64,000 bases of DNA from an uncultured Clostridium sp. (GTDB lineage: Bacteria; Bacillota; Clostridia; TANB77; CAG-508): NCBI GenBank assembly GCA_964370265.1, contig CAYJIP010000001.1, positions 130,828 through 194,827 of the forward strand, written 5' to 3'. Positions 6,398 through 17,399 of the stretch are shown one piece after another. The first letter of the stretch is position 1; every line of letters starts with the position of its first letter. The notes under the pieces are model-generated. The model had not been told where the DNA came from and ran no database searches. It was given only the letters and a program-made list of their open reading frames with translations. The translations under genes were made by a program, and so were the position numbers.

Positions 6398-8011
6398 ATG
6401 GCGAAATATTTAGGACTCTATATAGAAGATAATTTAATTAAATATGCTAAAGTTTCAAAAGAGCAAACAACAATAAAAGTTGAGTCATTTGGTGTTAAAA
6501 CTTATGAGAATCTAAAAAGTGCTATAGATCAGATAGTACAAGAGACATATAGTCAAAAAATTCCAATAAGTATGAATTTAACAACAGAAGATTACAATTA
6601 TTTTGATATGTCTAATTTGTTAACAAAACAATATTTAGATAAAGCAATAAATATGGAATTTTCTTATATATGTAACGAAAAAAATATAAATGCAAATGCT
6701 TTTGAAGCAAGATATGCTGTTGTTGAAAATGAAATAGATAAAGAAAAATTTAGAGTAATACATGTTACAGAAAATAAAAATAGATTAAACAAACATATAC
6801 AACAATTAGCAGAATATTCTGTGAGAACAGTTACAAGTTTGCCAATAACACTTTCTAATTTAATAAATTTAGAAAATCAAGAAAATTTCATGGTTGTAAA
6901 TGTAGAAGGAAAAACGACAATAACTACCGTATATAACAATAATATATATGATGTTATAAAACTAGAAGAAGGTAGTCAACAATTTTTAGATGATATAAAT
7001 ATAGAAGAAAATTCTATGTCCAAAGCATACGAAATTGCAAAAAACACTACAATTTATACTTCTAAAGGAACAGAATTACAAGAGTTTGAAACACAATATT
7101 TAGAAAAAATAATGCCAGTATTATATAATATAGTTGGAAAGGTTAAAAAAGAGATAAACAACTCTATTTTACCAATTAAAAAAGTATATATAACGGGAAC
7201 AGCAGCATTAATAAATAATGTTGATTTATATTTTCAAGAATATTTACCAGAAGTTAATTGTGAAATAATAGTACCACACTTTATTCCAAATAATCCAAAT
7301 ATTAATATAAAAGATTATATTGAAGTTAACTCAGCTATTTCTTTAGCCTTAGCAGGACTTGGTGAAGGTGTTCAAGGTATGAATTTCAAAAAAGTAAAAT
7401 TTGGAGAAAAAATACCTTCTATAGGGAAAAAGCAAACTAAAGGTGAATCTAAGAGTAAACCAGCGTTTATGAATTCTCGATTCTTTGATTTAGGAGAAAA
7501 ATTTGATGCAACGGAAAGATGGTTAGCTAGAACAGCGTTAGGTATGTTTATATGTGTTTCTATTTTTTCAGGAATATCAGCATATTTAAATATTGAAATT
7601 GTAAAAAAAGACGAAGAAATACAAACATTGATAGATGACACTGAAAGTCAAATTGCAAAAATAAATACAGACAATTCTCAAATACAAGAAAAGACAGCAG
7701 AATACACTAGTCTTATAAAAAATATAGAAGATGCTAATAATAAAATTGATGAAATTAATAAAGTTAAAAATGCTATACCAAATTTATTAAATCAAATAAT
7801 GGTAATTATACCACAAAATGTTCAGTTACTATCAGTTGAAAATACTTCAGGAGATAAAATTGTTATAGAAGCACAAGCTGAGAAATATGAACAATTAGGA
7901 TTCTTTATAGCAGAAATAAAAACAGATGGAATATTAGGAAATGTAATCTCAACATCGGGTCAAAAAGAAGGCGGAGTTGTTACTATTAGGATTGAAGGTG
8001 AATTACTATGA
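6398..8011 (+). CDS. pilM: Type IV pilus assembly protein, PilM (actin-like ATPase fold) fused to a PilN-like TM/coiled-coil module
   Basis: 537 aa. N-terminal ~330 aa has a PilM-like layout. Then a TM helix (ALGMFICVSIFSGISAYL) and a coiled-coil/alpha-beta C-terminus as in PilN. Overlaps the next ORF by 4 nt (ATGA). Confidence 0.6.
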   Translation: MAKYLGLYIEDNLIKYAKVSKEQTTIKVESFGVKTYENLKSAIDQIVQETYSQKIPISMNLTTEDYNYFDMSNLLTKQYLDKAINMEFSYICNEKNINANAFEARYAVVENEIDKEKFRVIHVTENKNRLNKHIQQLAEYSVRTVTSLPITLSNLINLENQENFMVVNVEGKTTITTVYNNNIYDVIKLEEGSQQFLDDINIEENSMSKAYEIAKNTTIYTSKGTELQEFETQYLEKIMPVLYNIVGKVKKEINNSILPIKKVYITGTAALINNVDLYFQEYLPEVNCEIIVPHFIPNNPNINIKDYIEVNSAISLALAGLGEGVQGMNFKKVKFGEKIPSIGKKQTKGESKSKPAFMNSRFFDLGEKFDATERWLARTALGMFICVSIFSGISAYLNIEIVKKDEEIQTLIDDTESQIAKINTDNSQIQEKTAEYTSLIKNIEDANNKIDEINKVKNAIPNLLNQIMVIIPQNVQLLSVENTSGDKIVIEAQAEKYEQLGFFIAEIKTDGILGNVISTSGQKEGGVVTIRIEGELL

Positions 8012-8658
8012 AAAAAATATTAATAATTATTTTAATTGTATTACTTGTAGCGCTATTAGTATTTATAGGTCTTAATGGATTAACTATAGGTCAATTTCAG
8101 ATACTAGGTGTTAAACAAATTCAAGAAAAAAATTTAGAATTAGATAATAAAATAGAGGAATCTGTAAAGTTAATACAAACAGATTACAAACAACAAGAAA
8201 CAGTGTTAAATGCAAGCATAAAACAGTTAGAAGTTGAAAAAAAAGAATATGATCAATTAGTACAGTTAGCGACAACAGAAAATGGCGTTTTGACAGGTGT
8301 GTTGGAAGAGTATGAATATGAAACTATTTTGATAAGAATAGGTAGTTATTCTACAATGGAAGATACTATAATACAATGGGATCTTGTGAAAGCTAACTCG
8401 ATAATTGAGGATTATTATAATATAAACTTTACATTAACAGGAAGTTATATTTCAATAATTGATTTCTTATCTAAAATAGAAAATGATGATATTTTAGGGT
8501 TTAGAATTGAAAACTTTGCTTTAACAACATCAGCGAGTGTAGAAGGAGCTTTACAAGCGACATTTACTTGCTCAGAAATCGTTATCAAAGGTGTCTCAGC
8601 AGAAAGTTCAAGTGCAGTAAATCAAGACACTAGTGAAACAGAAAATGTTGAAGAATAG
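8008..8658 (+). CDS. PilO-like bitopic pilus biogenesis protein
   Basis: 216 aa with an N-terminal TM (ILIIILIVLLVALLVFIGL), a coiled coil, then an alpha/beta C-terminal part. Position is directly after pilM/N. Confidence 0.45.
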   Translation: MKKILIIILIVLLVALLVFIGLNGLTIGQFQILGVKQIQEKNLELDNKIEESVKLIQTDYKQQETVLNASIKQLEVEKKEYDQLVQLATTENGVLTGVLEEYEYETILIRIGSYSTMEDTIIQWDLVKANSIIEDYYNINFTLTGSYISIIDFLSKIENDDILGFRIENFALTTSASVEGALQATFTCSEIVIKGVSAESSSAVNQDTSETENVEE

Positions 8659-8667
8659 GAGGAAGAT

Positions 8668-9072
8668 ATGATTAAAACAATAATAAAAGAATTATTTATA
8701 TTTATATTATTATTAATTGCTATAGGATTAATATTAAGTGTAATATTTTATGAGTATATTCCTACTAATAAAACGTTACCAGAAAAAGTTTCGTATACAA
8801 CATCTGAAGATGTAAAAGCACAATTAGAAAATGTAACAGTTGATACAGAAGAAATTGTTATGACACACACAATTAATTCGTCAGATTTAACATCATATAT
8901 AAATGTATCAGGATACACTCCTGGTAAAGTGAATCCATTTTCGTCATATGTGACAGAAGATGAACCATCTGGTGATGGAGGTAGTACTTCAACAGGAGGT
9001 TCTAGCTCTGGAAGTTCTAGTTCTGGTTCTAGCTCTGGTGGTCAATATTTTGACGATGAAGGAACAAAATAA
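8668..9072 (+). CDS. Bitopic membrane protein with a Ser/Gly-rich C-terminal tail (pilus-locus associated, function unknown)
   Basis: 134 aa with an N-terminal TM (LFIFILLLIAIGLILSVIF), a C-terminal GDGGSTSTGGSSSGSSSSGSSSGG tract and RBS ggagga. Confidence 0.45.
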   Translation: MIKTIIKELFIFILLLIAIGLILSVIFYEYIPTNKTLPEKVSYTTSEDVKAQLENVTVDTEEIVMTHTINSSDLTSYINVSGYTPGKVNPFSSYVTEDEPSGDGGSTSTGGSSSGSSSSGSSSGGQYFDDEGTK

Positions 9073-15740: not shown

Positions 15741-15773
15741 TGTTAATATAATTAGATAAATATCAATAAATTA

Positions 15774-15802
15774 TTGAAATATAAAAAAAATAGATATATA
15801 AT
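15774..15802 (+). promoter_or_regulatory. Sigma-A-type promoter of the large modular pilin gene
   Basis: TTGAAA (15774-15779), 17 nt, TATAAT (15797-15802). Confidence 0.55.
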
Positions 15803-15836
15803 ATGAATAATATAATACTAAAGAAGGAGTTTCAAG

Positions 15837-17399
15837 ATGTATCTGAAAAGTGAAGATGGAAAAAAAATAGATAATCTAGTGAAAAATGAAAAGGGTATAA
15901 CATTAATTGCTCTTATGATAACAATTATTGTTTTATTGATATTGGCAGGAGTATCAATAAGTTTAACGATAATAGACAATTCAATTGTTAATCAATCTGG
16001 AGATGCAGTTATATTAAGTAAAGAAGCAGCAGCAAAGCAACAAGTTAATCTGATATTGGAGTCTAGTTATGATAATTCAGGAAATATTAATTCCTCAAAA
16101 TTATTAGAACAATTATGGCAAATTGCTGATAGTATTCAAGGACAAAATGGAGAGATTGAAAAAGCTGATACACAGTTAGAGGATAATGATTATCCAATAA
16201 ATATTACAATAGATGGAATTACTATTACAATTGATAAACCAGCAGTTGGAAGTGAGACAATACCAACACCAACACTGACATCAAATGGTTCTTGGGATGG
16301 TAAAATTAATACACCCAAATTAGGAAATGATATGACTGCTATCGCATGGAACAATGAATTGGATGAAATAACACCACTTACGAATGAACAGTGGTATGAT
16401 TATGCGGATGTAACAATAGAAGGAATTAATACAAGTAAATGGGCTAATGCTAAAACAAGCGATGGCAGTTACTGGGTATGGATACCTAGATATGAATATA
16501 AATTAAATGAAGAAACACAAGAAATAGATATTAGTTTTATTCCTGTGTCTCAAACAGAACCATCATCAGGATATGAGATACATCCAGCTTTTCAGGATGG
16601 AAGTGATACTAATTATACAAATGGAGAATGGGATGCGGAACTTTCTGGTATATGGGTAATGAAATTCGAAGCTAGTAATTCAGGTAATAAACCGAAATCT
16701 ACTTATGGAGTTAGTAGTTGGAGAAGTACTACAATAGGGAACATGTATTCATATTCACAGACGCTTGATAGCACTAAAGGTAGCCATTTAATGAAAAATA
16801 GTGAATGGGGAGCAATAGCATACTTAAGTTATAGTAAATATGGAAGAAATGGAACTGAAATAACAATAAATTCAAGTTATTACTATACTGGTGGTGGTAC
16901 AGGTGATGCATATAAGACAAATATAGGTCAGAGTTCAACAGGAAATATAACTGGTATATATGATTTAAATGGTGGATCATATGAAAGAATGGCAGCGTAT
17001 ATATCGAATGGATATAGCAATTTAATTTCAAATGGATCAACATTTATATCAACAAGTACAGATGGAGCAGATACAACATATTACCAAAGTAAAAGTACAA
17101 AATATGTAACAGTATATCCATACAATAGTAGTCAAAGTAGTTTAAACAACTATAATGCATATTCATCAGTGAGTACAGATAAATATGGATATGGTGATGC
17201 GATATTAGAAATATCAACTACAGCTTCAAGTTCAGGAGGTTGGTATGGAGATAGTATTTCATATCCATACTCTTCATTAGTGTTTTTTATAAGAGGTGGA
17301 TATTACGGAGGGAACACATCAGCAGGTATTTTTAGTGTAGGAGGGACTTCTGGTTCATCAATTAGCACAAATGGATTCAGAGTTGTATTAGCATTTTAA
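15837..17399 (+). CDS. Modular pilin: pilin-like N-terminus fused to an FGE/SUMF1-like (C-type-lectin-fold) C-terminal module
   Basis: 520 aa. N-terminus VKNEKG|ITLIALMITIIVLLILAGVSISL. C-terminal motif series YWVWIPRYEY, IWVMKFEAS, EWGAIAYLS, GIYDLNGGSYERMAAY, FFIRGGYY and GFRVVLAF parallels the FGE-sulfatase domain consensus. RBS aaggag. Confidence 0.6.
   Translation: MYLKSEDGKKIDNLVKNEKGITLIALMITIIVLLILAGVSISLTIIDNSIVNQSGDAVILSKEAAAKQQVNLILESSYDNSGNINSSKLLEQLWQIADSIQGQNGEIEKADTQLEDNDYPINITIDGITITIDKPAVGSETIPTPTLTSNGSWDGKINTPKLGNDMTAIAWNNELDEITPLTNEQWYDYADVTIEGINTSKWANAKTSDGSYWVWIPRYEYKLNEETQEIDISFIPVSQTEPSSGYEIHPAFQDGSDTNYTNGEWDAELSGIWVMKFEASNSGNKPKSTYGVSSWRSTTIGNMYSYSQTLDSTKGSHLMKNSEWGAIAYLSYSKYGRNGTEITINSSYYYTGGGTGDAYKTNIGQSSTGNITGIYDLNGGSYERMAAYISNGYSNLISNGSTFISTSTDGADTTYYQSKSTKYVTVYPYNSSQSSLNNYNAYSSVSTDKYGYGDAILEISTTASSSGGWYGDSISYPYSSLVFFIRGGYYGGNTSAGIFSVGGTSGSSISTNGFRVVLAF

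Follow-up and report, generated by a model that had tools for sequence, protein, structure and literature searches.

The pilus locus and its gene content

The DNA considered here, referred to as the window, is a stretch of 64,000 nucleotides from an uncultured Clostridium sp. with a genome of ~26% GC (assembly GCA_964370265.1, contig CAYJIP010000001.1), and at positions 6398-17399 it carries a type IV pilus locus of eleven intact open reading frames (ORFs), contiguous and all on the plus strand. A first-pass annotation of this DNA had described a complete, contiguous, one-strand pilus locus at this place, and all of the ORFs that it listed were recovered. The feature that sets the locus apart lies in its subunits: residue +5 of the pilin-like proteins, counted from the putative cleavage site (marked ↓ below), is not the glutamate (Glu5) that is "almost invariably" present in bacterial pilins, where it interrupts the hydrophobic stretch, and that is often absent in archaea (PMC4471445). 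The genes and features are listed here in order of position, with protein lengths in amino acids (aa) and the evidence for each in brackets.

6398-8011, plus strand: PilM/N-like fusion, 537 aa, with a cytoplasmic domain, one transmembrane (TM) helix and a PilN-like C-terminal domain (ORF and PF05137)
8008-8658, plus strand: PilO-like protein, bitopic, 216 aa (identified by gene position alone)
8668-9072, plus strand: bitopic protein of 134 aa whose C-terminus is SG-rich (conserved in related loci)
9145-9567, plus strand: probable major pilin, 140 aa, MRKQNG↓ITLISLVITIIVLLILAGVSIAML, Ser at +5 (PF07963)
9595-9625, plus strand: intrinsic terminator-like hairpin 3' of the pilin gene (13-bp stem with 6 GC pairs, then a T-run)
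9731-10564, plus strand: PilD-like protein, 277 aa, with an A24 N-terminal Zn-finger/methylase domain and a divergent six-helix membrane half (PF06750)
10106-10114, plus strand: codons 126-128 of the PilD-like gene, encoding Ala-Lys-Asn in place of the Asp-x-Glu of 74 of 76 relatives (alignments)
10583-11011, plus strand: minor pilin of class 1, 142 aa, MNLRSNSG↓FSGADMV, Asp at +5 (six-frame scan)
11028-11474, plus strand: minor pilin of class 2, 148 aa, MKSEKG↓VTLTSLT, Ser at +5 (six-frame scan)
11500-13131, plus strand: PilB extension ATPase, 543 aa from the ATG at 11500, with an MshEN-like N-terminus (PF00437 and ribosome-binding site, RBS)
13149-14255, plus strand: PilT retraction ATPase, 368 aa (TIGR01420)
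14269-15612, plus strand: PilC platform protein, 447 aa (PF00482 twice, GspF/PilC NCBIfam matches)
15837-17399, plus strand: modular pilin, 520 aa, with a 20-aa leader, G↓ITLIALM (Ala5) and a C-terminal FGE-sulfatase-like module (homologs and RBS)
25966-27498, plus strand: unlinked modular pilin paralog, 510 aa, MNGSRKHKG↓ITLISLV, Ser5 (PF07963, 17.1 bits)

N-termini of the pilin-like proteins and register of the cleavage site

A six-frame scan of the window returned exactly five pilin-like N-termini, MRKQNG↓ITLIS, MNLRSNSG↓FSGAD, MKSEKG↓VTLTS, ...NEKG↓ITLIA and ...RKHKG↓ITLIS (the last at 25966), together with three unrelated regular-expression matches (36583 and 49616 on the plus strand, 26711 on the minus strand). 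All five consist of a short basic leader ending in Gly and followed by ~20 hydrophobic residues; the residues at +5 are, in order, S, D, S, A and S, and those at +1 are I, F, V, I and I.

The register of these N-termini was fixed with profile hidden Markov models (HMMs). A control GFTLIE N-terminus aligns to positions 1-27 of PF07963, with its Gly at position 6 and its Glu at position 11, and scores 42 bits against TIGR02532; the three window pilins that match PF07963 all place Gly at position 6 and Ser or Ala at position 11. The 140-aa pilin reaches 21.4 bits against PF07963 (cut-off 21.2), with residues 1-25 on profile positions 1-25, the two modular pilins stay under that cut-off with 18.1 and 17.1 bits (residues 5-29 of the 510-aa paralog lie on profile positions 2-26), and the two minor pilins have no PF07963 match. 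TIGR02532 gives no match at E≤1 for any of the five window pilins. When Ser5 of the 140-aa pilin is changed to Glu in silico, the PF07963 score rises from 21.4 to 28.1 bits and TIGR02532 reaches 17.0 bits (cut-off 16.3); the native protein is therefore missed by TIGR02532 because Glu5 is absent. An alternative register with an acidic residue at +5 was ruled out, as the control alignments tie Gly to profile position 6 and no acidic residue occurs from +1 to +26 of the 140-aa pilin, so that no other register can supply one. The initial reading of S, D, S, A and S in place of Glu is thus upheld by the PF07963 and TIGR02532 controls.

Conservation of the locus and its pilins in uncultured gut Clostridia

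Relatives of the locus were found by scanning species-representative genomes with the PilD-like gene, which gave 338 matched species-level genomes, the best match being 58% identical. These are metagenome-assembled genomes of uncultured gut "Clostridium sp." and "Clostridia bacterium". Related loci were fetched from 80 of them, at 20 kb per relative and 1.43 Mb in total, and most of the 80 share the gene order rsmB, pilMN, pilO, SG-rich, pilin, pilD-like, minor1, minor2, pilB, pilT, pilC, ROK, rpsB; the same arrangement is seen on metagenome contigs. Contigs of relatives run to 1.47 Mb, and one typical pilin of the family (P0062) turns up in 231 sample blocks. Across the 80 loci the median identity to the window proteins is 82% for PilT, 72% for PilB and 68% for PilC. 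The PilM/N-like protein is present in 73 of the loci (54% median identity), the PilO-like protein is kept in 73 and the SG-rich protein in 74, and the minor pilins of classes 1 and 2 occur in 77 and 78 of the loci, respectively. Purifying selection and synteny of this kind argue that the locus is functional.

In the related loci, 254 pilin genes fall into three classes, in all of which the Gly at -1 is 100% conserved:

Major-like class, MKNQKG↓ITLIALVITIIVLLILAGVSIAML, n=115: +5 is Ala in 108 and Ser in 7
Minor class 1, KSEKG↓[FY]TGID, n=68: +5 is Asp in 67 and Glu in 1
Minor class 2, MKSQKG↓[IV]TLIS, n=71: +5 is Ser in 66 and Thr in 5

Across the relatives the N-terminus of the major pilin, KG↓ITLIALVITIIVLLILAG, hardly varies, having Ala5, rarely Ser5 and never Glu. 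The first-pass annotation had proposed a survey of close relatives for the GITLIS-type N-terminus, and the survey shows a near-invariant G↓[IV]TL[IV]AL that mostly has Ala5 and rarely Ser5. Wider searches give the same picture. The 140-aa pilin has 6913 homologs, and in the top 120 the 119 besides the query's own cluster read G↓[IV]TL[IV]AL, all with Ala5; a search with nothing but its first 39 residues, made against 1.84 billion clusters at 50% identity, brings up 12,366, and the best 139 of these comprise 135 with Ala5 and 4 with Ser5. The Ala5 N-terminus is conserved more strongly than any other part of these pilins. As for the claim that the window's pilin-like N-termini are non-canonical at +5, it stands in that none has Glu5; it fails if taken to mean that none has an acidic residue there, since the class 1 minor pilin has a conserved Asp. 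At the level of sequence the usual pattern is inverted, the major-type subunits being without an acidic residue at +5 and one minor subunit keeping it. The minor pilin of class 1 also keeps an aromatic residue at +1 across the lineage.

The 140-aa protein is probably the major subunit, judging by its position, its strong RBS, its terminator, its frequent tandem duplication in relatives and its extreme N-terminal conservation. The terminator had been noted at first sight as strong and as the gene's own, which agrees with the 13-bp-stem hairpin at 9595-9625. A different assignment would make the Glu5-less proteins minor or accessory subunits, with a canonical Glu5 major pilin and a prepilin peptidase encoded elsewhere in the genome. 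There is room for these, as the contig is at least 225 kb long and the window covers 64 kb of it, and the window's own PilD-like protein, discussed below, looks catalytically impaired; tip or minor subunits without Glu5 are known (PMC9934059, PMC10191384), and Glu5-less mutants can co-assemble with wild-type subunits (PMC4471445). Against this, the 140-aa gene occupies the usual major-pilin position with a strong RBS and its own terminator, its tandem copies recur among relatives, and the Ala5 N-terminus is its best-conserved part, as would be expected of a homopolymer interface. In regular-expression scans of the 64-kb window (in any frame for GxGDxKL) and of the 1.43 Mb of related loci, neither a canonical Glu5 pilin N-terminus nor a GxGDxKL motif turned up; the search for canonical G↓FTLIE pilins, which the first-pass annotation had proposed for the rest of the genome, came back empty within those sequences. 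An assignment of the major pilin and peptidase to another part of the genome is accordingly considered unlikely. A lone match to the pilin pattern in one relative (L023) was dismissed, as the ORF around it is not pilin-like.

An AlphaFold 2 (AF2) model of the 140-aa pilin is lollipop-like (predicted local distance difference test, pLDDT, 82), with helices at residues 5-31 and 36-72 followed by a short helix and a three-stranded sheet. The split of the long N-terminal helix falls at a conserved TGxNG stretch. In more exact terms this is TG(E/D/N)NG at mature positions +26 to +29 (model residues 32-35), a predicted break that leaves a membrane helix of 25 residues and a second helix of 37, and the protein is without the Pro22 or Gly14 of canonical pilins. 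The TG(E/D/N)NG stretch may serve these pilins as a hinge of their own, in place of the "melted" segment.

Public annotation has little to say of this class. Annotated relatives of the 140-aa pilin are labelled "hypothetical protein". Three typical members (P0023, P0064 and P0062) score 20.3-20.8 bits with PF07963, just under the 21.2 cut-off, and have a partial match to the N-terminus of DUF6709 (PF20456), so that public resources leave most of the class without annotation.

Modular pilins

The two large pilin-like proteins of the window, of 520 and 510 aa, both combine a pilin N-terminal module with a large unrelated C-terminal domain, and by their domain layout they are modular pilins in the sense used for Streptococcus sanguinis. 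The start of the 520-aa protein is most likely the ATG at 15837 behind the RBS AAGAAGGAG, which gives the 20-aa leader. Its homologs number 5086, and in the top 120 a signal of this type is found 108 times, 82 with Ala5, 26 with Ser5 and never with Glu. The 520-aa gene was considered as a conserved member of the core locus and rejected, as it is an insertion between pilC and ROK specific to the window, where most relatives have less than 350 bp. A promoter-like site of its own lies at 15774-15802, 3' of a terminator-like hairpin at 15708-15739.

Relatives of the modular pilins match FGE-sulfatase (PF03781), fn3 and FlgD_ig. Both window proteins seem, from such resemblances, to carry a divergent FGE-sulfatase/C-type-lectin-like C-terminal module, which suggests a ligand-binding adhesin tip. 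In the 520-aa protein a weak match to PDB entry 5vf4 is found alongside the PF03781 matches of its relatives, and in the 510-aa paralog the FGE-like module was judged by eye from shared motifs only.

The assembly machinery

The motor and platform proteins are of ordinary bacterial type. PilB matches PF00437 with 341.8 bits, and its best NCBIfam model is that of type IV-A PilB, TIGR02538, with 406 bits, under the equivalog cut-off of 675; PilT scores 325 bits with TIGR01420, above the cut-off of 319.1; PilC has two T2SSF (PF00482) stretches, 83.4 bits, as well as GspF/PilC NCBIfam matches. The FlaI model gives only 64-65 bits against the window ATPases, for which bacterial PilB and PilT models score best. 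The N-terminus of PilB (11500-11700) has an MshEN-like motif that scores 22.3 bits with PF05157 and 31.5 bits with NF053729, both under their cut-offs. As MshEN-like motifs bind cyclic-di-GMP, this hints at cyclic-di-GMP control of pilus extension.

The inner-membrane alignment proteins are more divergent. The 537-aa PilM/N-like protein of the window matches the PilN family (PF05137) with 16.7 bits, under the cut-off of 22.8; PilN matches 25 of 25 orthologs at E≤1, the best at 1.3e-5, and PilM_2 matches just 1 of 25. The "PilM" part of the label is thus weakly founded. For the PilO-like protein no match was obtained in Pfam, NCBIfam or the PDB, and for the SG-rich protein none in the Pfam or NCBIfam family scans. 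PDB profile searches with alignments of the PilD-like, PilM/N and PilO-like proteins gave chance matches only.

The PilD-like protein

The protein encoded directly after the major pilin gene combines a well-preserved N-terminal domain with a membrane half that is difficult to recognize, an anomaly that the first-pass annotation had passed over. The window protein matches PF06750 with 103.8 bits and retains Cys40, Cys43, Cys65 and Cys68. It has no PF01478 match at E≤1, and 0 of 28 family members have one at E≤10; for each of the 120 top homologs, precomputed Pfam annotation gives PF06750 and nothing else, and no GxGD motif is present in the protein. In a comparison with 72,556 plasmid records, it matches canonical A24 peptidases over residues 12-116 only, and the canonical clostridial PilD of Acetoanaerobium matches 659 records along 80% or more of its sequence.

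Alignment of the family profile to nine canonical A24 peptidases by hhalign gives 99.8% probability over 239 colinear columns, a signal that comes mostly from the N-terminal domain. In this alignment the family-invariant GID126KE128N is set on the canonical first catalytic Asp (ID....PD motif), and the canonical GxGD Asp is set on a hydrophobic residue (G191-I192), with the family-conserved Asp176 ~16 residues upstream. The AF2 model (pLDDT 72) has eight long helices, with residues 126 and 176 at predicted cytoplasmic helix ends, Asp176 being near the cytoplasmic end of helix 5; Foldseek found no match to this model at E≤0.001. Typical family members presumably use Asp126 and Asp176 for cleavage.

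Relation to known systems

In gene content the locus resembles the type IVa pili of monoderms, such as those of Clostridium perfringens, C. difficile (PilA1) and S. sanguinis (PilE1/E2), with which it shares PilB, PilT, PilC and PilD homologs, putative PilM/N and PilO, one major pilin, few minor pilins and large modular pilins that bear adhesin-type C-terminal modules, as in the modular PilB/PilC of S. sanguinis (PMC6916266). Major pilins described from Clostridia and Streptococcus are canonical and have Glu5 (PMC6916266), whereas here position +5 of the major and modular pilins is Ala or Ser and position +1 is Ile or Val. The PilD-like protein differs too, being without a recognizable Peptidase_A24 domain or GxGD, and the pilins escape TIGR02532.

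Archaeal type IV pilins and archaellins also have class III signal peptides, and are often without Glu5 and assemble nonetheless (PMC4471445). The archaeal systems use FlaI/FlaJ machinery and PibD/FlaK peptidases without a methylase domain, in contrast to the bacterial PilB and PilT types, the A24 N-terminal domain and the invariant Gly-1 of the present locus. Among bacteria, subunits without Glu5 have been described as tip subunits (PMC9934059), and the tip or priming minor pilins GspK, PilK/PilX and S. sanguinis PilA are of this kind (PMC9934059, PMC10191384). In those systems the capping subunit alone is without Glu5, whereas here the major-type pilins have no acidic residue at +5 and a single minor pilin keeps Asp5.

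With canonical PilD (Peptidase A24A) the PilD-like family shares the four-Cys N-terminal domain, eight predicted helices, a colinear hhalign alignment and, in 74 of 76 relatives, an Asp at the first catalytic site. It differs in having no PF01478 match among the 28 members and no GxGD, and in the Ala126 and Asn128 of the window protein, given that two Asp residues are described as "universally conserved" in prepilin peptidases (PMC10191384). Lastly, a Tad-like cluster reported in 2024 from the uncultured gut order TANB77 (PMC11680825) likewise belongs to uncultured, reduced-genome, low-GC gut Clostridia and includes unannotated pilin-like proteins, one of them large. That cluster is of Tad type (CpaB, TadZ, CpaE, TadA/CpaF and fused TadB/C) and has no PilB, PilT or PilC (PMC11680825), unlike the locus considered here.

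In the searchable literature the motif ITLIALVITI was found in no paper, and no paper describes Glu5-less major pilins in uncultured bacteria or such a pilin class.

A proposed pilus assembled without the Glu5 contact

The reading that is favored here, with a probability of about 65%, is that the locus encodes a functional, lineage-wide, monoderm type IVa pilus which assembles without the Glu5 contact. The locus would be a chromosomally inherited, monoderm type IVa-like system, carried by a large lineage of gut Clostridia that are uncultured and low in GC. The subunits would form a distinct class of type IV pilin in which the basic leader, Gly-1 and a ~25-residue helix are kept, with Ile or Val in place of Phe1 and Ala (Ser in this genome) in place of Glu5. 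The major pilin and the modular adhesin-type pilins share this one type of N-terminus, and two small minor pilins would complete the set, one of them being the sole subunit with an acidic +5 residue (Asp). By analogy with archaeal pilins, it may be the alpha1N helices, almost invariant and packed against one another by hydrophobic contacts, that hold the filament core together, with no salt bridge from Glu5 to the N-terminal amine. PilB would polymerize the filament and PilT retract it, and the modular pilins would display FGE/C-type-lectin-like modules for adhesion. The PilD-like protein is likely to have co-diverged with these subunits, keeping its methylase domain and changing in its membrane half, and in most relatives it is presumably still a prepilin peptidase.

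The first-pass annotation had offered two explanations, a filament lineage without the Glu5 contact or uncleaved membrane-anchored proteins. The former is favored by lineage-wide conservation, synteny, the invariant Gly-1 and the lack of a canonical Glu5 pilin in the 64 kb and 1.43 Mb scanned. Several points weigh against it. Assembly, cleavage and methylation in members of the lineage are predicted from sequence. Glu5 mutants of major pilins in model bacteria do not homopolymerize (PMC4471445). The scans covered 64 kb of the genome and 20 kb per relative, and a canonical major pilin or a second peptidase may lie elsewhere. A Foldseek search with the AF2 model of the 140-aa pilin gave no match at E≤0.001, the best pilin being 6xxd at E=0.49. 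The membrane half of the PilD-like protein is not significant by hhalign when aligned alone (E=0.27 with two canonical sequences, E=0.066 with nine), and the assignment of the second Asp is therefore uncertain; with the GxGD Asp placed on a hydrophobic residue, the whole PilD-like family may not be a working aspartyl peptidase. Finally, the window's own PilD-like protein has Ala126 (GCA, 10106-10108) and Asn128, where Asp126 is found in 74 of 76 relatives.

This last point lends unexpected support, for the window genome, to the second explanation. In this account the pilin-like proteins would remain uncleaved there and possibly throughout its sub-clade, either as surface proteins anchored in the membrane or in a short pseudopilus that works like a piston, and a peptidase-dead PilD-like protein would act as a methylase, chaperone or scaffold. 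The nearest relative (L001) has Ala126, Thr128 and Asn176, so that Glu128 is lost in both genomes, and the two share several further changes at family-invariant positions; a compensating acidic residue common to both was looked for and none was found. The window protein differs at 18% of the family-invariant PilD-like columns, versus 3-6% for PilT, PilB and PilC. The protein is not evolving faster overall (residual from the identity trend -0.025, standard deviation 0.043), which argues against simple pseudogenization and counts in favor of this account. We read Ala126 and Asn128 as a real active-site change in the window sub-clade, as opposed to sequencing error or decay, on the strength of these comparisons. 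In the favored reading, with Asp126 and Glu128 lost, cleavage in this sub-clade must use another arrangement or another enzyme.

That cleavage has been given up altogether is nonetheless improbable. Every pilin-like gene of the window genome and of L001 still encodes Gly-1 and a short basic leader, and PilB, PilT and PilC are 75-82% identical between the two, which is hard to explain if the subunits stay in the membrane. In known systems, an uncleaved, positively charged leader blocks membrane extraction of the subunits. A second peptidase encoded elsewhere is the simpler explanation. Uncleaved membrane-anchored proteins are not favored for the lineage as a whole, and gain support from Ala126 for the window genome in particular. 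A further suggestion, that the locus is a decaying remnant without current function, could draw on the family-invariant residues lost from the PilD-like protein, and is highly improbable in view of the eleven intact ORFs, a PilT that passes its NCBIfam cut-off, the high identity and perfect synteny with relatives, and the lack of overall acceleration in the PilD-like protein itself.

A bolder form of the favored reading would have an order-sized lineage of gut Clostridia with retractile pili whose major subunit has an alpha1N free of acidic residues, together with a PilD homolog without GxGD; the loss of Asp126 and Glu128 in the window sub-clade, where motor proteins and Gly-1 persist, would then point to a new catalytic solution or to a different processing enzyme. 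In this full form the proposal is regarded as doubtful.

Significance

Glu5 mutants are the classic assembly-defective mutants of type IV pili. If a pilus assembled without the Glu5 contact is the correct reading, the salt bridge from Glu5 to the N-terminus would not be universally required in bacterial type IV filaments. The lineage would amount to a natural experiment on Glu5, in which hundreds of species run an ordinary PilB/PilT/PilC machine with Ala5 pilins, and the long-debated role of Glu5 and of N-methylation would become directly testable in it.

The locus also exposes a blind spot in annotation, as its pilins lie at or below the edge of PF07963 and miss TIGR02532, and an N-terminus of this kind recurs in over 12,000 clusters (50% identity). 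PilFind missed the Glu5-less PilA of S. sanguinis, according to the paper on that species, and would therefore probably miss these pilins too. The carriers are prevalent uncultured low-GC gut Clostridia, and surface pilins of a possibly related clade, TANB77, have been tied to immunotherapy response by way of the different, Tad-type cluster (PMC11680825). It is plausible that the adhesin-bearing modular pilins of the present system are host- or diet-interaction factors.

Other features of the window and related loci

In three of the relatives (L090-L092), SpoVAC, SpoVAD and SpoVAEB genes lie just upstream of rsmB or of the pilus locus, which indicates a spore-forming lineage. In the window, a tmRNA gene is located at 34964-35319 on the plus strand (RF00023, 173 bits) and is the sole Rfam family at the gathering threshold.

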